A DNA stretch of 64,000 nt from NCBI RefSeq assembly GCF_964355755.1, contig NC_092673.1, forward strand, positions 33,477,648 through 33,541,647, read 5' to 3'. A program made the position numbers and the translations under genes. Source of the DNA: Antedon mediterranea (taxonomy: Eukaryota; Animalia; Echinodermata). The notes under the pieces were generated by a model. The model was not told the DNA's origin. It was given only the letters and a program-made list of their open reading frames with translations, and searched no databases. This document shows positions 166 to 44,651 of the stretch, in pieces. How positions within the stretch are numbered: the first letter of the stretch is position 1; each line of letters starts with the position of its first letter.

Positions 166-1229
166 TACATTGTAATGTATACAATAAATATCCTTTAAAA
201 TAAAGGTACTATGGTGTTTTTTCCTTTAAAGTTCAATAAATAATCCTACTCAACTATTAATAATACTGTATACGAAAATAGTCATGTGAACCTTACAGTT
301 ATACCTTCAAGATGAGTCAATCATGAAGTTTAGGGCTACGGGGTCCGGTTGGGTGACTCGAGACTCACTCTCGTCGTCTCCAAATTACAACGGGACTTTT
401 TTTTTTATAACGACGGAAAGCGCCACGGAAGGCGGCAAAAGCTCCCGTTCACATTAGGAGTGATAAGTTACATATGTGCCGTCTTCTAATAACGTTAAAA
501 TGACTGAAGTAGATATTATTCTTAAATACCTCTACAAAATTTAAATTTCGTTAGCTTAAATAAAAGGCCTACTATTGAAATATTTAATTTTTAAAAAGTA
601 ATATTTCACTAGACTAAACTGTAGTTTGTGGACACTTGATATGATTGACAGGGCATTGGATAAAATGATTTTTTCACGAATACATCCGTTTCTCCCGTCC
701 TGATGTGTAAAGTCCCAAAATGACTGCGTAAAGTCCTTGAACAAGGTAACGATCAGCACTATTGCCGCAGAGGGGAAATCACCAAGGAGAATTTACCTTT
801 TTTGTTTTATTAACTTCATGAAATATTATTAAGGTGAACGCTGCTTACAACAATCGCAAGTGAATATAACTTTAATAACCTAATTACGAATCTTACAGAA
901 ACGGAAGGTTGGAATCCGTTTTCGTTATCGTATTTTGTGCGTTTTCGAATTTCTTTTGACATCTATTTTTGTTTACGTGTTTTTCTCTAATTTATAAAAA
1001 TAAAGTTATTGAAAGTACAGTACTGTCTTTATACTAATTTATAATAAACTTAATTACTTCAATAAATAGCATTAACTATTATAAATATAAATACAAGAAT
1101 GAATATTTTTTTTAACTACACATTTGAATTAATAAATATGATTAAATATACAAAAGGTTTGGTTATAACGAATGGATGATTACGAGGTACAATTGGAACA
1201 TTGACCCACTACCAAAAGAGGCACCGTTT

Positions 1230-1333
1230 GGAACATTGTCCCGTACCAAAATGGCGGAACATCTTCCCGTACCAAAATGGCGGAACATTGTCCAGTACCA
1301 AAATGGCGGAACATTGTCCCGTACCAAAATGGC
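1230..1333. repeat. 26-bp tandem repeat, 4 copies, in the 3' UTR of cytokine-like gene 1
   Basis: Unit GGAACATTGTCCCGTACCAAAATGGC; it explains ORFs 1163-1372 and 1201-1383. Confidence 0.9.
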
Positions 1334-1340
1334 GCTTACG

Positions 1341-4261
1341 TTATGAGGTGTGTATGAATCGTATGACGTCATCCTTCATTTGACTGATGTAGTCCGTAAA
1401 ATTCTGCAGAATACCCAACGTTAAACGATTGATGATAACAGAGTTGACCAAGGGTGTTAGATGAACAGAAGAGGGTGTTGTTGAAGAAGCCAGTGTCGAT
1501 GCATTTAGCGACGTAAGCTAAAAAGATGGAAAAGAAATAACTACGTCAAAACATGCGTACACACAAATCCGTGCCGTCATAGCATGCTTTTCAGCGACTA
1601 CAAAAAGTTGTGTGCATGCGCAGTTAGGCATATTTCATGTTAAAATGTAAACGTATACAAAATTGACGACATCAATATTGTTTTAATAGTTGTAAATGCT
1701 TAATAGGCTCTAATTTTATTCGTTTAAAATCGGTACGCTTGATAACCGTGAAAATCAGTACTAACTACGTTCACACTTTGTCTCAGTTCGAGTACGGTGG
1801 CCGGATAACTTAAATATAATGTAAATAATAGTATCCAGGAGGAATATGAAATTTGCACACTAACGCATTCCATATTGCGTACAAAACGCACGTGTGTGAT
1901 TCAAAACGTAACGCTGCCTGAAGTTTCTGGCCACCGGACCAAAACCAGGCTCATTTTGAACGTAGCCTTAAACAAAGATGGCCGCCGGCCGTACTTACCA
2001 CTTGGTTTGTTTCAGCAATACATTGATTTGTACTCGACAACGCGTTGGTAAAATTACTTGTAAAGTTGCTGGAAGACGTTGCTACACGTGACTCCATACG
2101 TATCATAATGCCAATTGCTACACCGTAAGTCTTCAAGTTCTTCAGGTGATAGAGCATAACTAACGTACTCTATTTATGGATATGAAATTGAAAAGATAAA
2201 TTATTGATTGAGATTACACTTTTTATACAGACCCCATGTGCAGTTAAATTATATACAAATATATATATAAACACATCAGGCAAAGAACATTGATTCTAAA
2301 CCGCCCGGTAATATACTGAAATTTAATTAATCAATTTGAAACGATAAAGATAAGGAAATCTGTGAGAATGAGAAATATATTTAATTTGTTTATTATAGAT
2401 CTAAAAATCACTTTTGTCGATTCCACCATACCTACGGTACCACTTACATACAGTGCAACATTCTCGATGCACTTTGAGTAGGCTTGCTACTGGTTAACGA
2501 CCGTGCAATACGCGTTTGCAGTGAGTCTATTGCCGATTATCACATGATATACTATTACAAGAAATACATATCAATTGTACAATAATTTTCTTTTTAAATA
2601 CTGCTTTTACGCTGCTTTATCATAATATTTCCATTGAATTGGTCAATAATATTGTGACGAGGACAATAAATTTAAAATGATGTGGTAATATATATTATGA
2701 TAATAATACTTACGTTTGATGCTAATGAAGTATTGATACTTGCCAGCGTGGGTATCCCTCTTATTGTAGCATTTACATATGCACTTCTTGAACCAAATCG
2801 CTCAATTTTCTGAAGAAATAACATGCAATGTCCAATTTTCATTTTTACCAGTCAGTCTAATAATATCTACTATCAAGAAGTATTTTCTTATAGTTCATTT
2901 CAGACTATTAGAAATGATAGAATCATAATACGATTTGGAGGGAAATGTGTACATCGTAAAGCTTGGTTCCCATTAGCAACGCAACGTAAGTGATTTGATC
3001 AATCAATCACAAACGATCGATTATTCGAACAGTGGCTTGTCATTGGTCAACTCGCTTGCGTTGCGCGTACGTCCTAGGTTTGCGTCTCTAGTGGGGACCA
3101 CGCTTTAGACATCCGATTATTCACGAAGTTTACATGCGTTCATGTGGGCACGTGACTGCGATCCTTGGTACCAATAGTACAAAAATACCACGTGACGATA
3201 TTGAAACTAGGCAGAAAACGGTTCACAGTACTTTTTATTACAGGAAATTAATTTTAGTATCGGAGCAAAAAAAATCGATTGATAACTTTATACGCTACCA
3301 GTAATACGCATGTGCAGCATGGTTATTTAGCAGGAAAAGTACGCGGTCTAGGCGCGCCTATAATGTGCTAGAGATGTGTTATCACGGGTAAAAATAGATA
3401 CATCAAATAGGTTTCCCTTTAATAGGGGTTAAAAACTGTACTTACGTATCGCAGTAACGTTGCATCCACTATGTTTGATAATGTCTGTAAGTTGTCTTTT
3501 AAAGAGTTGTAATTTTGAATAAGGTCATTTGTAGCCCTCCTGTTTGTTGGCCTTGCTGTGCCACGATGAATGCTTGCCGATATTAGTACGGCTACTGTAA
3601 CATAAGTAAGACCTTTATTAATTAACAGAATACCTTATTGCCATGTACGGATAAATAGAAAAATCGTGTACGGATAAGAATAACCGTGTACGGATAAATA
3701 GAATAATCGGGGAATATATTAGTTTCACAACGATATGAATAATATAATCAAACAATACATTTCTATTTAATTGAATCAACAAATAAGAACGTAAATATTA
3801 TTTCTTTAAAAAAATCAATTCACTATTGATAATCCTTGGCCACATTGCCTAAAGACATAAAATAAAATAAAATAACTATTAAAAACATTTCTTAAAGATT
3901 AAAAAAAAAGAAATTAATAACATAAAGTAACAACAGAATATCCAGTGAAATCATTTGATACTATAGTTGTATTATAATGTGTTGTTATTTAGCATAGAAA
4001 AGTTATTTCCGTGAAAACCCTCCTTTGGGACACTCTTCATAGGACACGCCTACTTTGTTGGTTCCCGAAAATTGTTCCCTTAACAGAGGGCCGTACTGAG
4101 TTGCATGGTTCGAATCATACTTGCCAACTACCATTATTTTACCGATTGTCCAAAACAGACATATTTGACTGAGCTGTAATCAAAATTTATTTACGATTAA
4201 AAACATATGCTTTTGAATTGACCAGTTTAATACCTATAGCGATAATTCCAGAACGTTTCAT
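1341..4261 (-). CDS. Secreted 206-aa candidate long-chain four-helix-bundle cytokine (IL-6/IL-11-like), paralogue 1
   Basis: Five exons 4261-4234, 3594-3446, 2809-2714, 2169-1999, 1517-1341 (28/149/96/171/177 nt), all GT-AG, intron phases 1,0,0,0, one continuous ORF: MKRSGIIAIVAVLISASIHRGTARPTNRRATNDLIQNYNSLKDNLQTLSNIVDATLLRY|KIERFGSRSAYVNATIRGIPTLASINTSLASN|STLVMLYHLKNLKTYGVAIGIMIRMESRV...NQCIAETNQV|LTSLNAST...RLTLGILQNFTDYISQMKDDVIRFIHTS*. N-terminal signal peptide. The gene model is well supported; the family assignment is inference. Confidence 0.85.
2960..3104. mobile_element. MITE family A (PIF/Harbinger-Tourist-like)
   Basis: Terminal inverted repeats AGCTTGGTTCCCA...TGGGGACCACGCT with TAA/TTA flanks; the family recurs more than 10 times in the window. 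Confidence 0.8.
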
Positions 4262-4343
4262 TGCAGTCTCTTCTAAATTTTACTTAAATATCTGTTGTTG
4301 AATTAATCTTTGTACTTTATGATGTGCCATGTTGATCCGATTC

Positions 4344-4355
4344 TGTTTTATATTT
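4344..4355 (-). promoter_or_regulatory. Candidate TATA box of cytokine-like gene 1
   Basis: Minus-strand TATAAAA about 85 bp upstream of the ATG at 4261. Confidence 0.5.
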
Positions 4356-4647
4356 AAAGATAGGCCTAATTACGAAATAAGTGACCACAGTATCGGAATA
4401 AATGCATTACGGTGGTGGTTTTCAGTGGGTTGAATAAGGAACAGGGATTTTTTCCTGTTCATTAGTATAGCACCTTAATAATCACTGGGAATTAATGTGT
4501 AATTAATTGCTTTCAATTTCCGTTATCATATTCACATTTTTTTAAATCGGAACAAACTGATATTGAAATCGTTTTTTTCTTCTAGTAATTAAGCATCGGT
4601 ACCCGGCCGTCTAAAGGCCAATTGACACAGACGAGCGGTAACGATAA

Positions 4648-4855
4648 AGCTTGGTTCCCACTACAGACGCAACGTAACGCAACTTACGGAACGTAAGCAA
4701 ATGCCCTTCCAATAATTGTGTTTTCCCCCGCCTGCGTGTTTGCAGCACCGTTGCATCGTCGGTTCCCACTTTTGATTACGCAAAATACAACACTTTGCGC
4801 CAATACGTCGCTGCGTTACGTTGCGTTGCGTTCTAGTGGAAGTGGAAACCACGTT
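4648..4855. mobile_element. MITE family A, longer variant
   Basis: AGCTTGGTTCCCACTA...GTGGAAACCACGTT with TWA flanks; internal sequence shared with 51741-51920. Confidence 0.8.
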
Positions 4856-6608
4856 TTAGCACAAAACCGCGTAGCTTGTCCCACATCGGAAACCGTTGTG
4901 TGTAAATAAATGGTCATTAGAATTAACATAGATTCTATATTTTTATTACTTTTATCGTCTGTGTAAATTGTCCTACGAAGAATTATATGACTGCTAATTA
5001 CTAATTAGTAAATCGCCCTTCTTGGATTAGGCCTTCTAAATAAGTTCTTGAACATCTTATCAAAACAATATTTCGTTTGTATTACGGTACTTCTAACAAC
5101 GTTTTTGCAAGTGATATTTTGACCAATGTCAAGCGACGGCTTGGATGAGTTTAGTTGAGCCGTCGTCGGTTATTGGTTAGTTCTCTTGGATTATGTTTTA
5201 AGGCTATTAAACCCATTTTTTGTTTTGTTTTATAGGTTCGTTTTACTTTTTTCAATCGAAGAATAATCCATCATTTTTTGACATGTTATGTTTTTCACAT
5301 TATTATTTATTTATTTTAAAGAAATTGATTTATTTTGTTGTAAATACAATATTTAATTATCCACATACATCCACATACATTTTTACTTAAGATTGTGCAT
5401 TATTCACTAATCACAGTGTATAGTATCGAAAGAGGATGGTCTAAAGTTATGTAATTTAGGTTTAAGAAATAATAATATTTATCTTCCAGTGGCTGTGAAT
5501 GAGAGTGAATTAAGGCTCTGTTTACGTTACCTCCGAAAGTTGTGGTTTTATGAAAAGGCTTTGACAAAGGGAATGTTAATATATTTTTGTGTTCATATCG
5601 ACATTTTGAAATAAAATGATACCTGGATCATCGACAAAGGAATTATATAGCTCGTTTAATTAACGTACCGTGTATTTTAGTAAATTAAGCAATATTTATT
5701 GACTCCCACACCCAACATCAAAAGTTACCCAGAGAAAGTAAATATGTATATTTTAGCAACATTACCAAAGGTGGTTCCGGAAATTAATCATATAAGTAGA
5801 AGTAGGATGAACATTACACAGACCTAGGTAACACTTGTATAAATTAATAACGTCAATATACTAATGGAGAAAATGTAACATTCAGAATTGGCGTTGATTA
5901 AAATCGATTATGTTATAAAAATTAAAATCTGCTAGTTATTACTGATATTATTTTGACATGATGTGGTCATTCTTATATCAAACATCTTGAAAGTAATAAC
6001 TTGTACTATGCATTTTGAGCTTTTACTGATTTTCTGGCTAAGTTGGCAAACATATGGAAAATGTAGCGTACATTTACCACGATTGTACGATTATCAGCTA
6101 TTCGATGTCGCTGTCAATACAATAGACGCACGGCAGCTTAACAATACACATAGTATAGCGGTGAGATGCAAGCCGAGCAGTCTTAAATTGTCTTTTTAGT
6201 GAACATCGTATAGGTTCTTAAATCATTGTATGTAAAGTTTTATTTAAGTCTGAGTATTCAGCGCCTTTGATAAAGAAGGGTTTTTAGAACTGTGCAATGA
6301 TGCTTACGAAGTAGCACTGAAGGAAATGATCAATATAGTCGTTTGTATTAATGCGGGCAAGTTTAATTAAGGTTTTATTTTATTGATGAGTGCTGGTAAT
6401 TAGTACAGTGTTTCATATAGTAATATCAATATATATTGAGGTGTAACATAACTATAACAATGATATTGTAACAGTTACCAATACTGTTTACGTCTTCGGC
6501 GACTTATTAAAATCGACATTGGTATAAAACAACACAATTGATTTTACATTGTTAAGTGTTATTGTTGATTGTTGTCAATTAGATATAGGTGGTTTGAGTT
6601 GCTGCTTA

Positions 6609-6755
6609 AGCTTGGTTCCCACTAGCGTCGCAACGTAATGCAACATACGCAACGTAAGAAAATTCCCTTCCAATAATTGTGTTGGCCCCTTCTGCGTGAA
6701 ATCAAACCTGTGATGTCTGCGTTACGTTGCGTTGCGTTCTAGTGGGAACCACGCT
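6609..6755. mobile_element. MITE family A
   Basis: TIRs AGCTTGGTTCCCACTAG / CTAGTGGGAACCACGCT with a perfect TTA target-site duplication. Confidence 0.85.
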
Positions 6756-7209
6756 TTAGAGACCGTACTGGGTTGAAATAGAAGAACTGAATTACTAACA
6801 GTTGTGTAGTTATCGTCGAAATTCGGCAGCCCGTCCGCGATATTTCTTTTCGTACATAAGTTTAGGACCCCTCGTGAAACGTCACAAAATAAACATGAAT
6901 ATTCATTAGTTATATCCATAAGGTGTGACGTAAGAATCGAGCTAACTACAATTCGCTAATGTAAACGATTTCTGTCGAGCCGTCTGTGTAGTCGAGTGAA
7001 TATATGGACTTTACATGTCGATGTATGGTGTTCGACTCCCATGAGCTACTTCTTTTACTTTATAGTGAGAGAGAGATTATTTGAAGGGTTAGGTTAAGTT
7101 ATATTTAGGAAGTTTGGCTATCTTTCACTTATGTACGAAAAAAAAAATCGCAGCCCGCCCTCATCCGTCTTCGATCCGCCTATCGTATTATGGCTGCAGG
7201 GGCCTGGGT

Positions 7210-8711
7210 GCGATTTTTTTTCCGTACGAGAGTTCCTCCATCGGTTCGTTTCGGACTCAATCGACTCTCTTCGGTAAAGTCAGCTCACTGATGCGTGAGC
7301 AACATAATACAATTTACATTAATAGTAATACGAGTTTTGATGACATTAATTAATAAATACTAGGCCCTAGGCCTACTTAGTAATTGCATTAAGAACCCAA
7401 TAGCATATTAAAGATAATTAGGTCTACGACCCAATAGTAGGTCGTATCAGATATTATTTGTTGAAGTTGAATGACCTTTTGTCACGAACGAAAGGCTCTT
7501 TTCTTTCGTTATGGTATTGTAGCTAGCCCATGGCTAGCCTAGCCAAGCTTGTGTAGGCCTATGCAATGTATTACTTTTGAATTTAAAATGATTATGTACA
7601 GTAGGAATTCCTATGCACAGTGTATGTTTTTTATACCTTTTAAAATAATATTATTAAATTAATATTTATATTGTAAGGTAATGTAATTACGTTACCGACG
7701 TAGGCCTACGTATTTATCCCCAATCATGAAAAATAAAGATTTCAGACTTTTAATAATAGGCCATTTTGGAGTTTTAATTAAGTTGGGCCTACAACTAAGA
7801 TATATATTATTGTTTATTATGTGTAATATGTAATTTGGAAAATCATAAAAAATACATGCAAAGTAAAAAACATCCAATTACGGTACTGACACGACTACAA
7901 ATAGTACAATACATTTAATAATAACAAATTTTCCAGGAAGCTTATGTGATACTATCATCTTATCATGAAGATCGGTTTTCTGTATTCTGATATTCTTGAT
8001 TTTATTTTTTTTATTATGGTTTCTGAAATTAATTAAAAAAAAAATTGTTCATTTTAATTCAAAATTTCCACCGGCCAAGATATCAATAATTATTAAATTA
8101 ACACAATATTAAACGCTTTATAAGCAAGCATTGTTTCTATACATTACAACTACAAGAATACATGTTACTAGGCTAGGCCTATAAACAATTCATTTCAAAT
8201 GAAGAAATTGTAATTTTCTTGATAAAAACATCTGTTAGTGTTACTGTACATATAATTTCTAACCTACTACTTCATTTTATTAAAATAAAAAATAGTACTG
8301 TAGATGGAAATGTACTACACATTGAAGCACACGTCGTACGTAGGGCTAGGCAGCTAGGCCTTTTGTGACGACCAACAAAGTGCTGCTGTGTGTGTTAACT
8401 GTTTGTGAATCTCATGGTACATACATTGGTTTGTGGCTGCCTATACAGTATTATATTATTAAAATTCAAGGCCTATTATTATTATTATTATTACAATGAG
8501 GTTCAGTACTACTATTAATATTTATTATTATATTTACAGTGAGTATATAATATTAGGCCTAGTAAATCTGTCACTCGTCGTGCAAAAAAAGCTGCTCACG
8601 TTTTGTCTTGTGGTTGCTGTCACGCATCAGTGAGCATCGGTGGCTTACCGAAGAGTCGATGGAGTCCGAAATGAACCGATGGAGGAACTCTCGTACGGAA
8701 AAAAAAATCGC
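7210..8711. mobile_element. ~1.5-kb non-autonomous TIR element with ~95-bp inverted arms
   Basis: 7210-7303 (GCGATTTTTTTTCCGTACGAGAGTTCCTCCATCGG...) is the near reverse complement of 8613-8711; AT-rich noncoding interior. Confidence 0.75.
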
Positions 8712-8987
8712 GAGCCGTATAGCTAGTAAAATGTTAGAATCAATGTCGCCCTCTTGCGATAGGTATGATAACTGTGGAAGACGTAGAGGGCAGTGGTTAT
8801 AAAAACTATGTACGATGTGTACATTATACTGTCTGTCTGTCTGTTATCATAAACGAAATAATCAAAAAAAGTGGACCTTTAACAGGACACACCCATTGGC
8901 ACATTACTAGATTAATATTTTTATCACATCAGTGAATTGTTATTAGTATTCTTCAGCAAGAATGTCGATATGCATCTAAACAACGAA

Positions 8988-9113
8988 AGTGACCTGACCT
9001 AGTAGGCCACACACGACGAGTACGTGACCCTCCGACTCGACCTCCCCATAAGTGACCTGACCTAGTAGGCCACACACGACGATAACTTGACCCTCCGACT
9101 CGGCCTCCCCATA
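8988..9113. repeat. Tandem duplication of ~63 bp
   Basis: AAGTGACCTGACCTAGTAGGCCACACACGACGA...CTCCCCATA occurs twice in succession. Confidence 0.85.
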
Positions 9114-10065
9114 ATCCATATATTGATATACATTATCATTTTAAACAAATAAATAATAAAGAAAATTGCTTTTTTAATTTATGTAAAATTTATTTTTAAT
9201 GTAAAAAAGTATGCATATAAACATAATCATCTTATTAATGGAAGATACATTATCAGCACCCCTAAAACACCTTTATTTTTATAAACAATATTATACTTAA
9301 ACTACAGTTGTATATTACACACATTTCCATTTTATAAATGGTTACAGGAATTCACTGAATAGACTTATTTATTCAAATTTTTTCAATAAGTATTATCCTA
9401 TTTCTTTCAATATGAAAGTACTTCATAAGTATCTAGATTATACATCCAAATGTTTTTTGTTTTCCAAATGTTGAAACAATTTTTTTAAATACATGTGGTT
9501 TTCTTAATTGAAACAATGTTTATAAAAATACAGCGCTGCTTCAACCAATAACCTTAAATAAATAGCATCTAAATAAATAAATATAAATACAGTAGTATAA
9601 AAAATAACGCTTTGCGTTTTAATTAAATCTGGAAGAGCTTGATATATACAGCACCTGATTCTTCAGGAGGACGACACCATAAACAAGACGCGCGGCACCA
9701 TAACCAAGACGCGCGCGTATAAACCCTGATAATTAGGACTGGCATTCTTATTGGACGCTTTCATCAGATGTCTTCTCGTGGTGATATATAAATAATTAAT
9801 TAATTCAAATATTATTTTATTATATTATTTACAAATTAAAGTTAAATTGCATTCGGATTCAAGGTTTAGTACTCTATTGGAATTCAAAATAGAAAATGTA
9901 ATATATCTAAAGTTATTTATATATACAGTATATTAAATATTATTTCAGGTTTGCATTTTTGCTTGCTATAAGCTAAACAGAATGGTACAACAGATGAATG
10001 AAATTCTATTTACAATTGCATGGTGGTGCGCAGTGCACCTTGTATAAATCACCTAATCCTCTCAA

Positions 10066-13000
10066 TTATTGCGAGCCAGAAAAACGCAGTCTGATGACGT
10101 CATCTCTCAAAACGCTCAGGTAATCTGCAAAGTTGTCCATAGTGGCGACCATCATAAAGTCGTTGGCTTGTTCGTTGAAAAATCTACATGCAACCGGGTG
10201 TCCCTCTGATCCAGCAATCAAATCGTGTTCCAACTCTTGCTCAAGCTTTAAAGGAAAAAAAAAATTATTAAAGATATTTAAACTTTTTAATCTTATTATT
10301 ATTGGTTATTTTATTTCTATTAAGTATCAATTCGATTTCTGTGTATAGATAGTGTTTATACATAATATTCGATACTGTTATGTTCGGTCAGTAACACAAA
10401 ACCGTACGCGCGCGCGTACAAACTCTGATAATGTAAACCTTTTGTACGCCGCCTTAAAAAAGTTTGTGGTTCTTTTGTGTTTTAGAAAGATTGATATTGT
10501 TAAATAAAATCAATTAAAAGTGTAGTAACTTAAATAAAAAATATGTACTTCGATAATTTGTTTAATATTAGTTTAATATTACCATAATAGATACCACATT
10601 AGAGCGATATTCACATTAATTTGTTCCGTTTCACGGAAGGACGAAGATTCTTTTTTATGATTTTCCATTTTAAACACAGGGTACAGTGTGAATGTAGCTT
10701 TACAGTGAGCAAACAAGCAATTGACTGTTGACTGTGTGAAAAGACTGTTACCAAAGAGAACCTTTACAACAAAATACTTACATATCTCGTTATACGATGC
10801 TGTACTTCTGTTATTACTAATTGTATTTTGACAAAATCGTCAACATAATTCGGTGTTCTGTTCATTTTTGTTTCATAATTCTTGAAACAGATCATAGCAT
10901 TGTTGTAAGTGAATAGTTCATCATAGTATGCGGCGAATATCTGAGGGAACTGCAAAAGAAACCATAAGACTTGAAATTTACATGGCATTGCTATTGTTCA
11001 CATGATGGGGGGGGGGGGGGAGGAGGGGCAGGGGGAGGGGACGTTGTTCAATAGTCTTTTGGCTAAATCTGTTTGGGTTTTTCCAACTATATGTGGTGGA
11101 GAAGCAAAGCCAAATCACATCTTTTGTGCGTGGGTGTAAAATCGCAATGCAGTGCGGTGGAGTTGACCAATCACAGGCGAAGGTTCTTGATTGGTCAAGT
11201 TACTTTGTGGTGGGTTTGAGCGAGAGTTGATTCACCAATCATGACAAGCGAAAATGCGAATGATCTATCGCGTCGTACGTCAACGTAGTTGCGGCTTAAG
11301 CTTGGTTCCCACTAGAACGTACGCAAGGACGTAAACGCAACGCAAGCGTTTTAACCAATGACAAGCGAAGTTATAGACAGTTAGCAATCACAAGCGAATA
11401 AGCCATCGCTTGTGATTGGTCAATTCACTTGCGTTGCGTTACGTCCTTGCGTTGCGTCGCTATTGGGAACCACGCTTTTGTGGGAGTAGGAAATCAGTCG
11501 CCTTTTTAAAAACTTACCGTTATATCTGGTTGTTGTGACCTAGCGTAGGCATCTTGGTTTTGAGGGACATTGTTATTTGTGTATCCGTTTGTGTACCCAG
11601 GATCACCAAATCTCATAGTTTTCTATAAACAGAAATATTATTACTAATGATGAGTTATCTGAGGACATTTTCAAGAAAATATTATTAAAAATAACTTAGT
11701 GACAACAATGTGAATAGACAAAAATAATATTAATGAGCGTGGCGAAACATAATGATATAGTATATGTAAATCAATAATAATAGTATACTTATACAAAATG
11801 ACAATGATAGTTAAATAATTGGTAAGACAAAAATGACAATGATAACAATAAGAAATAGTGATTTTAAATCTAAAAATGAAAATATTATTATATAATGTGT
11901 AATATTTTATTATGGTAATGAGTACCCACGTGTTGAAAAGGGAAAGGCGATTGTCTAAAACTGGCGGACTTGGATTCATCTGGTTTTGCTTTCGCGTCAA
12001 TAAAGTATAACAACTATCGATTTCTTCATTGACAAAAATTAAGATTTAATCATAGTTAATATTATACCGGATAACTACTGTACATGTATTGTTTACTTGA
12101 TTTTTTTAAAGGCCCTGTTGGTAATATGTGATGTATATTGTGACGTCATGAGTTAAATGAATGATCAATAAATCCCAATTACTATATTATGAGGAGGAAA
12201 CGCATGAACGTAAGCGCAACGCAAGTAATTTTGCCAATCAGGGCGGCGCGCGATGGATCATCCGAACTATCGCCTGTTTTTACGCTATACTTTCGTTGAG
12301 TTGCGTCTCAAAGTGTGAAACAAGCTTTAGTTTGAAAGCAAGTGAGGCACATGTGAATATTAATGATTGGTTCCCACTAGAGACGCAACACAACGACGTA
12401 AGTGATTTGACCAATCACAAGCGATGGATTATTCGAACTGTCGCTTGTCATTGGTCAACACGCTTGCGTTGCGTTTACGTCCTTGCGTTACGTCCTAGTG
12501 GGAACCACGCTTAACTGATTTCTGATATAATAATCATGCTGTACAAACTTTAAATCATTTATAGATATTACTCCATGCATTATAAGCCAAGAAACACTAA
12601 ACTACCCCTGCACTGATAAGGCTGAAACGAATAATACGAACGGTAATACAGTATGAGAAAATCGTTCCAATCAGACTGCAGTATGGGCCCGTTTAATCAG
12701 ACTGGACAGTCTATGGGCTCGTTCAATCAGACTGGACAGTCTATGGGCCCGTTCAATTAGACTGGACAGTCTATGGGCCTGTTCAATCAGACTGCAGTCT
12801 ATGGGCCCGTTCAACAAGCAGACTACAGCAGTCTATGGGCCCGTTCAAGCAGACTACAGTCTATGGGCCCGGCTTTATTTACCCGGGTAAGTTGGTGCCC
12901 TACCCACCAATAAACTGTGCCCATGAAACCATCTTTCGCGTGGGCGAATAACTAAAGGCGCCAAGACTTGAACATAAAATAGATAGGCCAAAGTTTATTT

Positions 13001-14510
13001 GTCTGAAACCGAACTAACTGTCGGTACCGGTACACTATATGCAATGGTATGATAATATACATTTCGTGGTTTTCGTGGTTATATAGGAAATGAATTTATT
13101 CCACCATTACAACACTATTACTAGTATTATTCCGGAAATTACAATAGGGTTGGTGCCGCTAGGAAATTACGGTTTCCCACCTCCCATTCCTTCTAAAATA
13201 AAAACCGAATATATAACTTGAATTTTACATTTCTGGTATTTTTATTCAACTTCAGATTTTTATTTTCATGCTATAGCAAAAATTATCCACCGTATATCCA
13301 CCATCTTTGTTCACCTTCTAGGGAGTCACAAGACATGTTATTACATTTGGTTAAACTACCGTACCTAACTACTGAAAAAAATGTCTTCCTGGTTTTTATA
13401 GCAGAATTTTGCCAAATTTTGTATTTGACCATAATAAGGGAAATTCATGTTTTTCGTCTTGATTTCTGTTACAAATATTTGATTTATGTACAATTAACCA
13501 GATATTATTTAAAATTCATGCCTGTACCTGAGCTTTAAAGTAAAAATACATTGCTACTCACCATATTATTTAATATTGATGTTTGTCTATTTACTAATTC
13601 TTCGACTTTCTTATCTAAATCGTCGACAATTGAGGGAATAGGAGCTGCTTTCACACTGTATAGGCAGGTAGCGATTAATAATAAAACGACTGCGAATGAC
13701 AGAAAAATAAATACATTATTATAAATTCTAAAAAAAATTAGATAATAAGAGAAAACTATTCTTAAAGATTAAGGAATTAAAGACTTGTTCGCGCATGCAT
13801 AAGACATTTTATAATACTGTAGGCCTAGCCTAATGCTGATTGCAGTAACTACCGACGATACACGCACAGCTTGGTTCTCGTTCAACGCAAGGAAGGTAAC
13901 GCAACGCAAGCGTGTTGACCAATGACAAGCGAAATTTCGAATAATCCATCGCTTGTGATTGATCAACTAACTTACGTTGTGTATACGTCCTTGCGTTGCG
14001 TCCTAGTGGGAACCAAGCCTAACTAGGACGTCGACCATTCGAATAATAATCAATCGCCTGTGGTTGATCAAATTACATGCGTTGCGCTTATATCCTTGCT
14101 TAACGTCCTAGTGTAGATTGAGTTCTAATAAAGGTCTAGTTGAATTGTATAATTATTATTTGATCGTTTTATGGAGATGAGTGGATGACTACGATTGATA
14201 TTATTATTAATTAAGCTCATCCACAATGAGGGACCTCAAAACAAAACAAACGTAAAGCATGATTATTGCGCACTATAAGTACATACTGTAATCTAATCAA
14301 TGTACTATCCGTTAAAGGTTTATTATAGGCAAACTATCCTACCAACAGAATAATATACAGAAATTGACTGGGTTCTATCGATCCATCCATCGTGTACACG
14401 ATCATGGCAATAACAACCCTATTTAGTAGCCTAATGGGCTCAGATTATATAAGGAAAAAATGAGAAAAAAAATCAACGTATAAACTCTTACCTGTCGCCA
14501 TTCTGTACAT
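10066..14510 (-). CDS. Secreted 199-aa candidate long-chain four-helix-bundle cytokine (IL-6/IL-11-like), paralogue 2
   Basis: Exons 14510-14492, 13689-13562, 11622-11518, 10949-10782, 10245-10066 (19/128/105/168/180 nt), GT-AG, phases 1,0,0,0: MYRMATVVLLLIATCLYSVKAAPIPSIVDDLDKKVEELVNRQTSILNNM|KTMRFGDPGYTNGYTNNNVPQNQDAYARSQQPDIT|FPQIFAAYYDELFTYNNAMICFKNYETKMNRTPNYVDDFVKIQLVITEVQHRITRY|LEQELEHDLIAGSEGHPVACRFFNEQANDFMMVATMDNFADYLSVLRDDVIRLRFSGSQ*. Shares KxxRFG and NFxDY...DDVIR with paralogue 1. Confidence 0.85.
11299..11476. mobile_element. MITE family A (intron 3 of paralogue 2)
   Basis: Both TIRs present; nearly identical in reverse orientation to 60907-61085. Confidence 0.85.
12364..12511. 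mobile_element. MITE family A
   Basis: TTGGTTCCCACTAG...CTAGTGGGAACCACGCT, TAA on both flanks. Confidence 0.8.
12664..12870. repeat. ~28-30-bp degenerate minisatellite, ~7 copies
   Basis: Unit GTTCAATCAGACTGGACAGTCTATGGGCCC. Confidence 0.9.
13205..13538. mobile_element. Dispersed repeat, TTAA-ended (Kolobok-like) non-autonomous element fragment
   Basis: Closely similar in reverse orientation to 18664-18968; ends GTACCTGAGCT-TTAA, compare GTACCTGGCCT-TTAA at 19230-19244. Confidence 0.6.
13868..14019. mobile_element. MITE family A
   Basis: AGCTTGGTTC...CTAGTGGGAACCAAGCC, followed by a partial second copy to ~14115. Confidence 0.75.
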
Positions 14511-14550
14511 GTTTACGTTTAGGAATGATCTGATTTGACTCCATCTCTGC

Positions 14551-14754
14551 TTTTATATATGTAAGGCTATCAGATCATTTCTCAGATTCAAAATACCGCT
14601 TTCCCTATTACCGATGAAGTTTTACTTGCCTTACCGATGATGTAATCGCTAACAGTAATGTTGGCCAATAGTGCTCTTTTGTACTGTTACGTATCCTATG
14701 CAAAGTTGCTTTGAGCTCTGATTGGATGATGTGGATGACATCATGGGATTCCCC
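14551..14754 (-). promoter_or_regulatory. Proximal promoter of paralogue 2 with TATA, C/EBP-ATF-like, CCAAT, CRE-like and kappaB motifs
   Basis: TATATAAAA (14551-14559, minus), TGATGTAAT (~14638-14646), CCAAT (14721-14725, minus), TGACATCA (14736-14743), GGGATTCCCC (14745-14754, matches NF-kB consensus GGGRNNYYCC). Confidence 0.55.
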
Positions 14755-15871
14755 TTTTCGATGTAGTAACGAAATAATTCAACAGTCGACTCAGTACGCT
14801 GCAAGAGAACAGAAGATTTAGTTTGATATTGGAATCATAGGCCTAAACCACTTACAGTTTTCAAATCACTGTATTGTCTGTCACTATTTTTCGTGTTTAG
14901 GATTATATTAGATGATTTTGATTGTCAGCATGCCATCGGAAGTGAATTGCAGTGCAGCAGATCGCGTACATAGGCCTACTACTAGGCTAGTAAGCCTAGC
15001 TTTAGGTAGGCTAGGCCTTTGTGTGCCGCTGCGATACCTCGTAACGTGTAAGGTACCCGTGTGTATACAGTATTCTTGAATATAATAGGCCGTTCGGTTT
15101 GGTTTTGTAACCAGGGAAGAGACGTATTGATGGGTGGGTTGTGACGGTGCCACTGCCTGTCTGTGGTAGGTTACCCAACAACAAAAAAGGCCCATAAAAT
15201 CTCATAAAATCATATGGATGGGTTTGGAATCCCGAATTTTAATTTGCATGACACTGACAGAGGAATATAGTACTAGAGTAGCCTAAGTAGGAGACGTTGA
15301 TCTCCAGCAATTGTATTTTATGACAAATTTGTATTATCTATAATAATGCCTATTATTAATATAATACTGTACATATATGCGTATTGAAATTTATTCTAGG
15401 TGAAAAGTCTTGTATTAGAAAATTTAGTTCAGAATAAAACTGGTATGTAGATTGAATACGAAGTTGATACAGTAGTTATGTTTGTGAGTGTTTTTTTTTT
15501 CAATATTGCGTTATTAACACACTCGTACTGCTCTGGGTAGCACATGCGCCTGTAGTAGGCAGCACCATTAGCCTACCAAACAATCGATTGGATTTGCTGT
15601 ATCAAAGAACGGGATATGGAGTGGAAGATTCCAGTAGTGACAGCAGGTACCGTAGGCATACCGATGTGTTCTTCAGTGGTTACTGTTAGTTGATTGATGC
15701 CGAAGTGTGTTATGATTGTCCCCGGGTATTTCTTGTTAGACCCAAAAACCACCTGAGCAGTGTAACGGTAGACATGCTCATGAGCTGGTTGGGCATCGAC
15801 ATCGAAAGCTCACTGTCAAAATGTTATAAGAAAGAAGGGGTCTGATCATAAATTGAACAATTCGAAATGCA

Positions 15872-16309
15872 TACCGCATAGGCAGCAATGGGTGTGTGCT
15901 CTGTTCTGGGTTGACCGACTAGCATAGTATAGGTGTTTAGCGCATACCGCATAGGCAGCAATGGGTGTGTGCTCTGTTCTGGGTTGACCGACTAGCATAG
16001 TATAGGTGTTTAGCGCCTACCGCATAGGCAGCAATTGGTGTGTGCTCTGTTCTGGGTTGACCGACTAGCATAGTATAGGTGTTTAGCGCCTACCGCATAG
16101 GCAGCAATTGGTGTGTGCTCTGTTCTGGGTTGACCGACTAGCATAGTATAGGTGTTTAGCGCCTACCGCATAGGCAGCAATGGGTGTGTGCTCTGTTCTG
16201 GGTTGACCGACTAGCATAGTATAGGTGTTTAGCGCCTACCGCATAGGCAGCAATGGGTGTGTGCTCTGTTCTGGGTTGACCGACTAGCATAGTATAGGTG
16301 TTTAGCGCC
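15872..16309. repeat. 73-bp minisatellite, 6 copies
   Basis: Unit TACCGCATAGGCAGCAATGGGTGTGTGCTCTGTTCTGGGTTGACCGACTAGCATAGTATAGGTGTTTAGCGCC. Confidence 0.95.
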
Positions 16310-16759
16310 TGTTTGGTCTTTCTTTCTTGCCTTTTATATATGTTTTGTCTTCTTTTTATTGTATATGGCAGAAAATTGAATAAGTAAATATATAATAATA
16401 TATAATTCATTAAGGTACTAAATTAGGCCTATTAATAATTTAGCAGAAATGTATATTATTTGGGATTTTTTTTAAAATATATAACTGTTGTGAGATACAT
16501 TTATCTTAATTTGTTTATTATTTTGAATTGAATCAATTTCAATCGAATTCAAAAACAGATCTTGCTTGCTATTAGTGGAGAAAGGCGGAGGGGATGTTCT
16601 ATAGAGAGGATCGCCAGAGTGCTTTTGATAAAATTATCACTGGCATGATATTTTTTAGTGAAAGATTCAAAGCGAGGCCATGTTTCCGCGCCGGAAATGT
16701 TTGGAATATTGTTGAGTGAAAGAGTGAATCGATAATTTCTTTACATTTGTAAATATGGA

Positions 16760-17465
16760 AGTTTGGTGTAATTGACTTCTCTGACCTAAATGGATCACAG
16801 TAGCTCAAATCTTTTCTGTTTCACTACGTTATGCTTTTTAAATATAGTAGGTGTACTATTAAAGATGTATCCCCCCCCCCCTCCACCCCACCCCAAGCAA
16901 AATAAACATGAAAAGTGAAGATTAATAAAATCAGACGTTTATTTAAGTTTAATATAATTGAATTTTCTGACCTAAATGGATCTCAGTAGCTCAAATCTTT
17001 TCTGTTTCACTACGTTATGCTTTTAAATACAGTAGGCGTACTATTAAAGATATATCTCTCCCCCCCCCCCCCTCCCCCCCCCCTCCAACAAGAAAAACAT
17101 GAAAGTTGAAGATTAATAAAATCAGACTTTATTTAAGTTTGGTCTAATTGAATTTCTGACCCGATGGGTCTCAGTAGCTCAACTTTTGTTCTGGTTTGCT
17201 ACGGTATATGCTTTTTAAATACAGTAGGCCTACTATAAAGATTTAGTCCAACAAAACACATGGAAAGTGAAGATTAATAAAATCAAACTTTTATTTAAGT
17301 TTGGTCTGATTGAATTTTCTGACCTATAATCTCAGTAGCTCAAACCTTTTCTGTTTCGCTACGGTACCGAATATGATTTTTAAATACAGTAGGCCTACTA
17401 TTAAAGATGTATTGTCCCCCAAAAAACATTAAAAGTAAAGATTAATAAAATCAGACTTTTATTTA
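16760..17465. repeat. Four degenerate tandem copies of a ~165-190-bp unit
   Basis: Recurring TCAGTAGCTCAAATCTTTTCTGTTTCACTACG...ACAGTAGGCCTACTATTAAAGATGTAT...GAAGATTAATAAAATCAGAC; includes the TTAAAGATGTATTGTCCCC terminus also seen at 30500. Confidence 0.8.
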
Positions 17466-18663
17466 TTTATTTATTTATTCTGGTTTATTTTAAAAACGAC
17501 ATTGTAGTACAAAACTAAATTGCGTCCAATAGAAAAATACAACCATGATACGTAGAAAAAAACGTATAGATGTGTTATTATAGAGTCAAGCTAAATTTCA
17601 TATACATAAAAAAAAAAAGACAATATTTAATAAAAAAAAAATATATATAGCATTATAAAATAAATTTACATATTCAAATAATTGCGAAAAAAATTTCCAG
17701 TTTTCCTAAAAACAAATAAAAGTATATTTTTAATTTATTGAATAGGCCTACATAGATATTATATATTTGATAAACGATTTCATGATTTAAATTAGTTTCG
17801 GTTCATTATGCATCTTAGAGCCACTCAATACAATTGTTTAATTATTAAAAATAAAATGTTATTTATGTTGACAGGTCGTGGCATAGTATCGGTATCTGTT
17901 CGCAATAGACCCATAGCAACCGTTCATCCCTTTTTGCAACAGAAAACATAACATTAGTTTCGGTTTCGATACCCTGTCTATTGAATTAGGCATTGTATAA
18001 ATAGATATGAAAGGAAATCCCGATTCTAAAAATAGATACTTCGATTAGATACGCGGAAAGAAACTTCCCGATGCTAAAAATAGATTCGTCCATTTATGTG
18101 TATAAGCCGTCTATTGATGAAAATTGATTGACCAAACAACAATACATGCGGTATTATAATTGCAAATGAGACATTTCCTGAATATTATGAAGTGAAGATG
18201 ATGAGAATATTAAAGTAAATGATTTGATTAGGCCTATTGAGACTTAATTATTGATTAATACAGTAGGCCTATTGGGTTGTTTTTATTGTCAGTCAATAAT
18301 GCTTCGTACAATACAAAACTTCATAATCATATCATTTTCAATTCGCAATTTATTAAACATTAAAAATCAGTAATATGTTACGTACATATTCTTAAATAAG
18401 ACCATGGGCCTAAACAGAAACATCTCATTACCTTAACGTAATCAATCAACCGTGAAATCGGTTAAACACTTTCTCTTCTTACAGAAGATACTTTTTTTAT
18501 AATAATTTTAAAATCATCTTTACTGTCAAAATACAGTAAAAAGTACTGTGAAAATCGCAAATTAGCAACTGTTGTGTCGTGCCATAAAGTCAGGAGGCTC
18601 TGTAACACAATTTTAATCTTATATAATAGATACTATACTAGGCCCTAGTTCTTATAAAGAGTG

Positions 18664-19244
18664 GGGTACAGGCATGAATTTTAAATTTAATATTTGGTCA
18701 ATTGTACATATATCAAATATTTGTAACAGAAATCGAAACAAAAAAACATGAATTTCCCATAATATGGTCAAATACAAAATTTTGCAAAATTCTTCCATAA
18801 AAACCAGGAAGACTTTTTTTCAGTAGTTAGGTAGTTAACCTGATCTGATGACTCTCTAGACGGTGAAAAAAGATGGTGGATATACAGTGGATAATTTTTG
18901 CTATAGCATGAAAATAAAAATCTGAAATTGAATAAAAATATTAGAAATGTAATATTCAAGTTATATTACCTATATTAAGTCCTCTGATAACATATTTTAC
19001 CACACCGTTTATTTTTCATAGCTTTTTAAAATGCCTCTCTATTTACAAAATGTGTGTACAAAAGAATAGAGATTTTACTGTGTAATTTTAACTATCCCCC
19101 CACTGATAAGAAAGTGCTTATTTTCAACAAGCTCGTGTAACACAAATAAAATCCAAAAAATTATGAAACATAGGGGAAACTAAAGATTGATAATTATTGG
19201 AATGTATGATCAATAGAAATTTTTTGCCCGTACCTGGCCTTTAA
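18664..19244. mobile_element. Dispersed TTAA-ended element related to 13205-13538
   Basis: Inverted copy of 13205-13538 (ORFs 13218 and 18768 give near-identical translations); right end GTACCTGGCCTTTAA. Confidence 0.6.
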
Positions 19245-20010
19245 GCATTTTACAAAATTAAACACTGTTGAGTAAAGAATTGCTAGTGAGATAGAGGTCA
19301 CTAACATTATACCTTAATTACATTGTTTATATGTTTATAACAATACTGTAGAATCAAAAGGCCAGCACAACATGGCCCAAACAATGGCAAGAAAAGCAAG
19401 CACCCTGATATATCAATTAAACAACTATTCCAATATACATTATAAATAACAGAAAACATAATAAATAAAAATAACCGTAAATCTAATAGTTCACACTCTA
19501 ATAAAACCCTTCTAAAAGTAACCCACCAAGTCAATCTATGGAGGTTACTATTATTTATTACTATATAAACGTATGACAACATCGTTTAGCGAGGTATACT
19601 GTGGGGTATATAGCACATAAGTTGGAAGGCGTTAATTTCGTTTGATTTGATTTAAACCAATAATACAAGAAAACCCGATTATTAAACATTGTTGCACGAA
19701 CCAAGGATTTGTTTAAACGCATGACGTCAGCGTTCACGTGTTATAACACATATTGTATAGCACTCCTGCTTAAGCTTGGTTTGCACTAGGACGCAGCGCA
19801 AGAACGTAAGCGCAAGGCTACTAAATTGACCAATCACGACGCGATGGATGATGATTCATCGCGTCATGATTGGTCAAATTACTTGCATTGCTTTAAAAGA
19901 GGTGTGTGTGTGTTTATTTTCGTAAGGTTGTTTTATAAAAAATAAATGATTATTAATATTAGCTGAACATTAATTTTTTTTTTAAATAAATTAACTTATT
20001 GGCATGACAA

Positions 20011-20664
20011 TCAAGAGCTGCTACTATTATGATGTAAACGTATGACGTCATCATAGAGCACACTTACAAAAGTTGATAAATTTTCAACGATTACGGCATT
20101 TTCGTTGATTCGATGAGCATCGTTAAAATATCGGCGACATGGAAAAGGAGCCAAAGTAGCATAAGGTCCGCCGCCATCACCAGTGCTTTGAAGCTGTGGA
20201 GTAAACAATAAAATTATTAAAATAAACATCTAGATCAAAGATTTATCAATAAAAAAATCAATAACTTTGAAATAAACATTTGTTAGTATTCTATTTTCTA
20301 TTTATTATAAGTTAATATTAATGATATCAAAGCTCGGTTCGCACTTGGACGCAACGCAAAATAAGCGCAGCGAATTTGACCAATCACGACACGATGGATC
20401 ACCCGAACCGTCGCTTGTGATTGGTCAAATTCTTGCCATAAAGCTTACGTTGTTGCGTTCAAATGCTAAGCAACATGAAATGGAAAAACTTACATAGTTA
20501 TCAATGCGATAATTAACGTCTAAGATGTCGTTGATTATATCTTGACAAGCTTCTGAATAGTTTGTTGAGGACGAGGAGGAGATGATCGACTCTCTTTGCT
20601 TCACACAAATCATTCCTTGGCGATAACCCCTGAGGTCTGTAATATACTCCCGAAAATGATCGTT
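20011..20664 (-). CDS. Cytokine-like paralogue 3, exons 4-5 only (exons 1-3 not found; possibly a 5'-truncated pseudogene)
   Basis: Exon 20664-20494 (171 nt: NDHFREYITDLRGYRQGMICVKQRESIISSSSSTNYSEACQDIINDILDVNYRIDNY, donor GTAAGT) and 20193-20011 (183 nt: LQSTGDGGGPYATLAPFPCRRYFNDAHRINENAVIVENLSTFVSVLYDDVIRLHHNSSSS*). Shares MIC, CR, SVL.DDVIRL and phase-0 boundaries with paralogue 2. Confidence 0.75.
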
Positions 20665-20930: not shown

Positions 20931-22251
20931 TTTATTTGTTTGTTTGTTTTTTATTGATTTTCCACACAAAATGAATATGATAATTAAGTAACAATAAACA
21001 TATATATATACAAGAAAGATGTGTCGCTGGTGGGCAAATAAGTTCAAAGAACTTTAAGGCTTACCCACCAGAAAAGATACAATAAACATTATCAAGTATA
21101 ACGAGTAATTAATACATAGTAAGAATATAAAATAAGAAGTAAAAATACATAAGTAAAATAAAAAATTTAAAAAGTAAGTAAATAAGAAAAACAGTAGTAC
21201 TGTATAAGTTATTAAAATGAATCATAAGTGTTTTAAACTTTAGCATTTGCACAAGTAATAATAAGTTAATAATAATAATAAATACGTAGTATTTAAGTAC
21301 TAATAAATTATTTATTATATTCAGAGACTAAAAGCTTTTTGTAGTTGTATTTAAAACTATAAGAGACTGTACATTTTCTTTTTAATTAACTCTTGTGAGA
21401 TTACTCTCCAGAGCTTAGGTCCAACATAAAAACCAGAGTGACGACGAGGCTTATAAAACGACTTATCAGGAATAAAATTATTTATCGAACTTCTAGTGTT
21501 ATGTGTATGACCATCAGCAGTTTTTGAAAATAGAGAACTTATATGAAAAGGCAAGATATTTTTAGATAAGCGGAACATAAATAGAGCTATCTGAAGCTTA
21601 TTCAAATCATAAATGTTTAGAACGTTAAGCTTATAAAAAAGTAATTTCGAATATGTGATCTATAAGATTGCCCTGCACAAATACGTAAAGCACGTTTTTG
21701 TAATTTGAAAAAGCAGTCAATATGGGTAGTCTCATTACTAAGCCATGGGCACAATGTATCGAACTTATCTAAGGTAACGGCCCAACTTAAATTAATATAT
21801 GAAAGATAAGGTAAAACTAAGACATTGTATAATGTGAGTAGGATTTGTTGAGGGAGTAGATGTTTAAGTTTGTTAATTATACCTATGTTTCTAGCGATCA
21901 AGCTACTGGTTGTATTAATATGTTGCTTCCATGTCAAATTTGAGTCAATAGTGACACCAAGGAACTTGATTTCATGAACATGGTTAATTAGCATTTTATC
22001 AATGTATATATTTTTATCTGTTTTTGTTTTGGCTTTTGGTTTTGGATATGTTAAGAATTAATTTGTTGCATTTTAACCAGTTTGATATGTTACAAAGTTC
22101 ATTGTTCATGATATTAAATAAAGTGTTAAGATTAGAATGTGAATAAAATATGTTAGTATCGTCGGCAAAAAGAATAAATTTGAGTATTCTAGAGCTGGAG
22201 GGTATGTCGTTAACGAAAATAGAAAATAAAAGTGGGCCTAAGATTGAGCCT
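20931..22251 (-). mobile_element. 5'-truncated, frameshifted L2/CR1-group LINE
   Basis: RT motifs GSILGPLLF and LFADDT (ORF 22014-22280), KFLGVTIDSNLTWKQHI (21617-21994), HNTRS...GPKLW (21357-21605); 3' stem-loop CTGGTGGG...CCCACCAG at 21027-21071 and an (AAAC)n-like tail at ~20931-20950. Confidence 0.9.
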
Positions 22252-24367
22252 TTATAGTTTAATAGTTTTCCAAATAACAAACAAAAACACGATTAGAGAA
22301 GATATCCGGAGGCTTTGCCCATAATTTCTTTTTTCAATTTGTAAATTTAAGATTTTAGCAGGGAGTTGTGCAATTTTACTTTTTCCTGTTTGTAGTAATA
22401 AAGGCCAATATACACGGGTGTCTAGAAAACTAAGATCTAGAAAACTAAGACCCAAATATATTTTGAAAATACCATTGTTTAGTGTTACCTACCTATTTTA
22501 TATCATTTATAATACAGTAATTTATTGAAAGTGCTAAAACATTGCTGAAAATCAAAGTCAATTTATTCGTATTGCAATGTAAAGGCTCTTATCCTATGCC
22601 TGGATGATGTACCAGGAATATTGAATGTGTCATATTGCAATCAACTATTCCCGAGTACTACTCGCTATGAAATCCACTTTCCAACGTCGATGACTTTCGA
22701 TCGATCCATCATGGAATATCCATTGGTTATACTATATGTTGTTCATTTATCGGATTTAGTGCCAACTACAGTTAATCTAAATCCATGGATTAGTTACGTA
22801 ATTATTGTATTATTTTGTAATAATAAATTGTTTTCAGTTTTAAGTATTTTTTTTTTAAATTTTAAATAGAAATGCACTGCACTGCACATTTTTTTTCCAT
22901 AAAAATCCAACAAATATATATTTACAGAAATTAAAAATCAATATTTCAAATATTAAATATAATATTTGATATAAAAAACATCTGTTTTGGTTTCGGGTGA
23001 TTAATTAGGTCAAATGTTACATCATATTTCTCAATAATAGTATCATGGTTATTTTGTAATGCATCTTTACTATAGTAGTACCGTATGCCATAGGACTACA
23101 TTATATTATATATAGTTAATCAAAAGTTCAGATTTCGGATATGTGGCATATCTATACATGCTTACCTCGTAGATTTAATTTGCATCAAGTAGGAACAAAA
23201 TTAATTTTTGTGTTTTTTTTATTTAATTTTTTTTTTTTCAAGAAAAAAATACAAAAATTGACGGGATAATAACGCACCTGTACTAAAAATTATACTTGAA
23301 CCAGAGGTGAGAAACAAATTAGCGACCAACCCACAAAACAACCAAACAGTAATAATGACGGAAGTTATTGTCAAGCTATTGTTGGAAATGACCTAGCATG
23401 TATCTCATTCAGCTTTACGAGCATTGTATCATTACATCAATGTTTCAATTGGCCATTATTACCATGTAATATGAAATAATGTCGATTATTAGCCATATAG
23501 AAATTGATATTAATAGTTTCCTTATATCCTTAATAGTGGTTAGTGTCTTTAGGACGGACTGACGGGGGAAAGGTCGGTAAAACGTCTTCCGGTGAGAGCA
23601 ACCGAAGACGGGGAATGCCGATGAATTTTTTCTTGATTTTTTGGTCCACTTTCATGGATGACCATACGCAATACTCATAAAGAATTTTGTAATTTGTTTA
23701 TTGATTCGACGTCTTAATATGCATTTTCACTATTTGAAAAGTTGCCTCAAAGAAATGAAAGTGACAACTGATTGAATCATAATAATTATATAATAAATGT
23801 TTCTTTTTTTTATTGTAAATTTGGTAATGTTTTATGAGTTGACGCCGCGTACCTTCCTTGGTGTTGAGTGCCACTGATGCAAATGGTGCTTGTAAATAAA
23901 TATTATCTAAGTTCAACTCTACTCAGAGAAAGACTTTATTTGTAGGCCAGCAGCCTTAAAATATAATTATTTTAATTGAAGATGCCAAATAATATATTAT
24001 TTTTTTAAATCATTAATAACATTTTTCGAAATACTTTTGAGTTATTGTTGTTACTGGGCCTAATTTTTCAGTATAAAATGAATGAAAATATTCAGTTTTG
24101 CTAACTTAATTATAAGTAATTAATTTAAATAATATACATATTCATAAAAATATGTATATATAGATATATATAATAATAATATAGATATACTGTATTAAGT
24201 GACGATGATAAAAGATAGGTATTTCATAACCTATAATACGCCCTTGATATTTCCACCTGCAAAACGAAATGTCTTTTTTTGTCCGGGCCATAATACTATA
24301 CTAATATCACTTTGACATATTCGTGTTATTATTCATTCATAGTTTGTTGTTATACTTTTATAAGGCC

Positions 24368-34890: not shown

Positions 34891-34896
34891 CCGAGA

Positions 34897-44585: not shown

Positions 44586-44651
44586 CATTAGACCGTTTTC
44601 TATACGCGTCCATCATAGTAATGATGGACGCGTATAGAAAACGGTCTAATG
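44586..44651. repeat. Perfect hairpin, 31-bp arms and 4-nt loop
   Basis: CATTAGACCGTTTTCTATACGCGTCCATCAT-AGTA-ATGATGGACGCGTATAGAAAACGGTCTAATG. Confidence 0.95.

Follow-up and report, generated by a model that had tools for sequence, protein, structure and literature searches.

In a 2026 survey, IL-6 is found in jawed vertebrates only and in no invertebrate, while IL6R-like receptors, JAK and STAT are listed for molluscs and echinoderms and an IL6R/gp130-like receptor is reported from the sea urchin (PMC13203501). A 2026 preprint extends IL-6 back only to lamprey and hagfish (bioRxiv 2026.04.02.716188). By structure, IL-1 has recently been traced to invertebrates including crinoids, in an account that leaves IL-6 unmentioned (PMC13736523). 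Searches of the open-access PMC and bioRxiv literature listed no class I ligand of an echinoderm. Here, we analysed a stretch of 64,000 nucleotides (nt) from the feather star Antedon mediterranea (contig NC_092673.1, positions 33,477,648 to 33,541,647; hereafter the window, numbered from its first letter). Its minus strand carries two complete five-exon genes and part of a third, which probably encode long-chain class I helical cytokines. As far as these searches reach, such ligands are new for echinoderms.

All exons of the cluster lie on the minus strand. Gene 1 starts with a 28-nt exon 1 (4261-4234) that holds the ATG, the start of the signal peptide and a phase-1 donor, followed by exon 2 (3594-3446, 149 nt) with the remainder of the signal peptide and predicted helix A, exon 3 (2809-2714, 96 nt) with K-x-x-R-F-G and a predicted AB loop, exon 4 (2169-1999, 171 nt) with N-L-x-x-Y and predicted helices B and C, and exon 5 (1517-1341, 177 nt) with a predicted CD loop and helix D, DDVIR and the stop. 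Gene 2 is formed by exon 1 (14510-14492, 19 nt, with ATG and phase-1 donor), exon 2 (13689-13562, 128 nt, signal peptide and predicted helix A), exon 3 (11622-11518, 105 nt, K-x-x-R-F-G and a Pro/Gly/Asn-rich predicted AB loop), exon 4 (10949-10782, 168 nt, E-L-x-x-Y, a Cys at residue 21 and two helices in the AlphaFold2 model) and exon 5 (10245-10066, 180 nt, Cys at 20, DDVIR and stop). Of gene 3, exon 4 (20664-20494, 171 nt, D-L-x-x-Y, Cys at 20 and 40) and exon 5 (20193-20011, 183 nt, Cys at 19, DDVIR) are present and open. The spliced products of genes 1 and 2 comprise 206 and 199 amino acids (aa), and in the models of genes 1-3 all nine introns are GT-AG with phases 1,0,0,0 and all frames are open. 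As judged by Kyte-Doolittle hydropathy, on which our signal-peptide call rests, both proteins have hydrophobic N-termini (3.16 and 2.82 over 11 residues) and no membrane span thereafter.

An initial annotation, made from the sequence alone, had described two complete genes plus exons 4-5 of a third at these positions, with the same exon sizes and phases; our models reproduced them, and its description of the genes is correct in all checkable details. Its remark that the cluster is largely invisible to open reading frame (ORF) detection holds for exons 1-3 and for gene 1, but four exons lie within stop-to-stop ORFs of 77-79 aa. Scanning the window for chains of exons 2-5 by their layout yielded 14 on the minus strand, each of which is a variant of the gene 1 or gene 2 locus, and none on the plus strand; at least one chain occurred in 6 of 2354 block-shuffled windows, with post hoc thresholds that were derived from the real sites. 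The scan also gave alternative acceptors at 10940 and 2139 and an alternative exon at 11311-11204, so that the precise joints modelled here were chosen by the strength of the splice sites and by aligning the paralogues. The window is AT-rich overall, and the introns of genes 1 and 2 contain many short high-copy inverted-repeat elements.

Local alignment of the proteins gave scores of 110 (genes 2 and 3), 59 (genes 1 and 3) and 61 (genes 1 and 2) against shuffled means near 30, and these scores were matched by 0, 0 and 1 of 1000 shuffles, respectively. Identity to gene 2 amounts to 38% for gene 3 and 28% for gene 1 in exon 5, to 31% and 15% in exon 4, and to 20% for gene 1 in exon 2. On these alignments the three loci are deeply diverged paralogues. 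All motifs singled out in the initial annotation were recovered: KxxRFG where exon 3 begins, [DEN]-L-x-x-Y within exon 4 and N..DDVIR within exon 5. K-x-x-[RK]-F-G has four six-frame matches in the window where 1.4 are expected: one at the start of exon 3 in each complete gene, one at 20881 and one on the plus strand. The exon-4 pattern, defined post hoc as [DEN]-L-x2-Y-x3-[IM], is found at position 10-11 of the exon in all three paralogues and at 70 of 127,996 six-frame positions. Codons of the invariant N, S and R residues vary at silent sites, the Arg of DDVIR being written by three different codons in the three genes, which argues that these residues are kept at the protein level.

To model the fold, AlphaFold2 was run on single exons (4 and 5) with three-row paralogue alignments. 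Exon 4 was predicted as helices 2-31 and 36-55 with a mean predicted local distance difference test (pLDDT) of 71, and exon 5 as a long C-terminal helix preceded by a short helix and a break, with pLDDT 84-93 at residues 21-50. Hydrophobic columns keep a spacing of 3-4 among the paralogues in exon 2, in each half of exon 4 and toward the end of exon 5, whereas exon 3 is the least hydrophobic segment (17-28% L, I, V, F, M and Y vs 31-43% in the others). An up-up-down-down bundle requires helix A to be followed by the AB loop, helices B and C, the CD loop and helix D (PMC7378365), and the predicted segments come in this order. One Cys in predicted helix B and another directly before helix D are common to genes 2 and 3, and we infer that the two would be adjacent in such a bundle. 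The earlier picture of secreted, paralogous helix-loop-helix-helix-loop-helix proteins with a class I exon layout is thus borne out indirectly by gene models, exon helices and hydropathy, with the four-helix fold as a prediction. Structure searches with exon hairpin models, which are non-specific queries, returned no cytokine match.

The exon layout points to a particular class of ligands. From lamprey to mammals, IL-6 has five exons, a first intron in the signal peptide and three phase-0 introns (bioRxiv 2026.04.02.716188). With 199-206 aa and a signal peptide, genes 1 and 2 show two of the four features by which that preprint screened (150-280 aa with an N-terminal signal peptide, as judged here by hydropathy), and their modelled joints give the five exons, the signal-peptide first intron and the three phase-0 introns. 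The first intron of IL-11 lies 7 bp from the start (PMC3271213), the G-CSF gene has five exons (PMC6389648), growth hormone (GH) and prolactin (PRL) genes have 5-6, with an amphioxus GH-like protein that lacks the vertebrate cysteines (PMC9546618), and erythropoietin (EPO) has five, with the AB loop encoded by exon 3 (nt 160-246), which lies between two phase-0 joints (PMC5473850). As G-CSF, EPO and GH/PRL have the five-exon plan in common, the layout marks long-chain class I cytokines and not IL-6 or IL-11 in particular. First introns of the G-CSF, EPO and GH/PRL genes are phase 1. Of the IL-6 signature Cx9Cx6GLx2Yx3F, the part L-x2-Y-x3-hydrophobic is present in exon 4; helix B of IL-11, CNTF and IL-12p35 has the same pattern. 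The exon-4 motif therefore leans to the IL-6/G-CSF side, as a post hoc match to a pattern that is common in amphipathic helices.

Flanking sequences carry candidate marks of inducible genes. The 3′ flank of gene 1 (741..1340, minus strand) contains five WATTTAW elements and an AATAAA at 811, that of gene 2 (9466..10065, minus strand) nine and an AATAAA at 9821, and four follow within 600 nt of the gene 3 stop (shuffle p of 0.0075, 0/2000 and 0.058 for genes 1, 2 and 3). Eight other gene ends carry 0, 0, 0, 2, 1, 4, 0 and 1 (mean 1; window mean 1.3), and the end of an NCS-1-like neighbour described below also has four. Upstream of gene 1 (4346..4380, minus strand) we found a TATA box at -91 and at -119 a 10-mer shared with gene 2, whose upstream region (14551..14777, minus strand) holds a TATA box at -47, an NF-kB consensus at -244 (14754-14745), one of three strict NF-kB sites in 64 kb, and the shared 10-mer at -267. 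This 10-mer, spotted by eye and thus post hoc, occurs twice in 64 kb, upstream of genes 1 and 2, and is presumably C/EBP-like. In intron 1 of gene 1, a STAT-type TTCNNNGAA site adjoins a loose NF-kB site (4007-4027), although STAT-type sites are common (17 in the window). Such consensus matches are not proof of function, but they fit inducible, unstable cytokine mRNAs, which would explain the lack of annotation. A further candidate element lies within the coding sequence: the D-D-V codons of exon 5 are the same in all three genes, silent sites included, and form the cAMP-response element (CRE) palindrome TGACGTCA (at 1364, 10095 and 20043 in genes 1, 2 and 3), which is present eight times in the window against 0.6 expected, with the remaining copies at 12141, 19722, 39855, 55672 and 58438.

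Several observations weigh against a cytokine assignment. An invariant palindrome under D-D-V makes DDVIR weaker as protein evidence, and part of this motif may be conserved for reasons of DNA and not of protein. Amphipathic helices and L-x-x-Y are widespread, and the predicted fold rests on single-exon models, pieces for which AlphaFold tends to draw helices. In the gene 2 exon-5 model, helices 2-11 and 17-56 leave a short CD loop, too short for the crossover unless both helices are drawn longer than they are. The signature Cys and Gly of IL-6 are absent from the paralogues. Ligands of the gp130 family have site-III Trp and FxxK features (PMC9601804, PMC7378365); none of the three paralogues contains a Trp, and there is no FxxK at the start of helix D, where a preceding aromatic pair in genes 2 and 3 might replace the site-III residue. 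According to an older paper, no cytokine receptor system is apparent in the sea urchin (PMC3296744). Profile comparison had been put forward in the initial annotation as a check on the cytokine assignment and came out negative for single exons: none of 10 exons had a Pfam result below E 0.2, with no cytokine match and none to the IL11 profile, and the PDB profile search of exons returned chance rows only. Lamprey IL-6 likewise escapes sequence search (bioRxiv 2026.04.02.716188). The cytokine-like genes have no match in an NCBI protein collection that holds an annotated neighbour gene and are thus apparently unannotated there, an absence that also fits non-expression. In a library of 1.84 billion sequences two matches appeared, both repeat artefacts, and no homologue.

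The lack of homologue and profile matches would also be expected of secreted helical proteins unrelated to cytokines, such as a lineage-specific signal, a pheromone or a matrix component, whose layout matches by chance. Phase-1 signal-peptide introns and phase-0 introns are the commonest kinds, and the window holds a second tandem family of unannotated secreted proteins. Nonetheless, we consider this explanation unlikely, because phases, exon sizes, the helix and loop order per exon, the position of the exon-4 motif and the AU-rich 3′ flanks all match class I cytokines.

Within class I, the IL-6/IL-11 label of the initial annotation was not supported. The five-exon plan is shared too widely, the IL-6 cysteines, site-III Trp and FxxK are missing, no profile or structure search matched a cytokine, and no IL-6 neighbour was seen, TOMM7 not being among the annotated genes of the window (sequence below position 1 and 34000-42000 is not covered). 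Orthology to IL-6 or IL-11 is thus very improbable, and the genes are likely IL-6/G-CSF-like in kind. They could instead be class I hormones of the GH/prolactin/EPO kind, with a role in growth or regeneration and not inflammation and with a receptor that is short and homodimeric (GHR-like or CRLF3). The exon numbers of GH/PRL, the amphioxus GH-like protein without vertebrate cysteines and the phase-0-bounded AB-loop exon of EPO speak for this possibility, as does the missing site-III Trp/FxxK. However, the predicted helix B carries the motif known from the IL-6 signature, and the AU-rich elements and the NF-kB site point to inducible immune genes. We therefore regard a hormone of this kind as rather improbable. 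With one mature Cys in gene 1 and two in gene 2, the four-Cys, two-disulphide pattern of vertebrate GH/prolactin is absent, as it is from the amphioxus GH-like protein.

Gene 3 differs from its neighbours in its integrity. A candidate exon 3 (20881-20777, minus strand, 105 nt, open, starting K-x-x-K-F-G) begins 217 nt upstream of its exon 4; the pyrimidine tract ends in GG instead of AG at the acceptor, and a weak in-phase donor yields the same 105 nt as in gene 2. Its 3′ half may be similar to a short interspersed nuclear element. Exons 1-2 were searched for upstream of gene 3 and not found, and their expected place is occupied by a broken reverse-transcriptase fragment (21357..22292, minus strand), presumably of long interspersed nuclear element type as judged from its translations. 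The end of gene 3 exon 5 recurs as a relic at ~19590-19510 on the minus strand (DNA score 44; 0/500 shuffles). From the GG acceptor, the reverse-transcriptase fragment and the missing exons, gene 3 was probably damaged only recently, and its exons 4-5 are still open. This damage, and the absence of the genes from annotation-derived collections, could mean that all three copies are dead or unexpressed. We hold this to be very unlikely, since paralogous exons have kept open frames and strong splice sites while diverging to 15-38% identity, the genes have TATA boxes as well as polyA signals, and among the variants listed (40 of 192; 8 low-depth alleles) the sole coding allele, at position 1473 in gene 1 exon 5, is silent. 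Class II helical cytokines of the interferon/IL-10 kind share ~200 aa, a signal peptide and five exons, but in the published account have phases 0-0-0-0 and five helices and are not found outside chordates (bioRxiv 2026.05.30.728932), while the cluster has a phase-1 first intron and four long predicted helices, which leaves this reading with next to no probability.

We thus favour, with some confidence, tandem inducible ligands of a putative gp130/Domeless-type JAK-STAT receptor. In these putative long-chain class I cytokines, helix A would come from exon 2, the extended AB loop from exon 3, helices B and C from exon 4, and helix D with the CD loop before it from exon 5; in genes 2 and 3, a disulphide would join the helix-B Cys to the Cys that closes the CD loop. 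For the site-I face we propose the R-F-G where helix A meets the AB loop, together with the invariant Arg close to the end of helix D. Expression would be off in the resting animal and induced by infection or injury via the NF-kB, C/EBP-like and CRE sites, and AU-rich elements would render the mRNA short-lived, so that gene callers would overlook the genes. The predicted secreted protein would then engage a gp130/Domeless-type receptor and activate JAK-STAT in the feather star. More tentatively, and with slightly less than even confidence, these may be the first echinoderm gp130-type cytokines, descended from a bilaterian five-exon, NF-kB-inducible four-helix ancestor of IL-6, IL-11, G-CSF and IL-12p35; the class I gene plan would then predate chordates, the missing invertebrate JAK-STAT ligands would be findable genome-wide by exon layout alone, and the CRE in the DDVI codons would be a conserved control element.

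Directly upstream of the cluster lies an EF-hand gene that we take to be NCS-1/frequenin-like (28269-31628, minus strand). An NFKBIL1-like ankyrin gene follows at 57371-59743 on the minus strand; its last exon matches an Antedon mediterranea NCBI protein at 100% identity and Anneissia japonica NFKBIL1 at 63% (3 matches among 491 candidates), which by itself places the host among the feather stars, in Antedon or very near it. Human NCS1 and NFKBIL1 both lie in regions paralogous to the major histocompatibility complex (MHC), and the two neighbours hint at a proto-MHC linkage group. On the plus strand, 42316-53709 contains five tandem two-exon genes for secreted proteins with a signal-peptide exon, a phase-0 intron, a conserved core with two Cys and acidic Thr/Ser-rich tails; the copy at 45360-46129 gave no clean gene model, and the two copies scanned had no Pfam match. 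A single-exon gene on the minus strand (33251-33430) encodes a predicted membrane microprotein of 60 aa without a Pfam match, whose exact sequence is absent from the protein collection. Minisatellite arrays are located at 15880-16300, 24370-24920, 26140-27130 and 42730-43270.

If our reading is true, a crinoid ligand fills the deuterostome-side gap between JAK-STAT receptors and their missing ligand, the exon plan of long-chain cytokines dates before chordates, and a defined reagent becomes available for JAK-STAT in echinoderm immunity and arm regeneration. Among known systems, the genes resemble the vertebrate IL-6/IL-11/G-CSF group, including lamprey and hagfish IL-6, in a length of 150-280 aa, five exons with the first intron inside the signal peptide, four long predicted helices in matching exons with L-x2-Y-x3-hydrophobic in the second of them, AU-rich 3′ ends and tandem paralogues. 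They differ from vertebrate IL-6 in lacking its cysteines, site-III Trp, FxxK and detectable similarity, in having no TOMM7 seen adjoining, in the other Cys pair (helix B and CD loop) of genes 2 and 3, and in their echinoderm host. With GH/prolactin, amphioxus GH-like and EPO they share the five-exon layout, the AB loop on exon 3 and the four-helix fold, predicted here, but not the GH/PRL disulphides; further differences are the helix-B motif, which is of IL-6 type, and the regulatory marks, which are of immune type. The Domeless ligands of Drosophila, Unpaired 1-3, are invertebrate secreted JAK-STAT ligands, the role that we infer for the feather star genes, which in contrast to them display a vertebrate-type exon layout.

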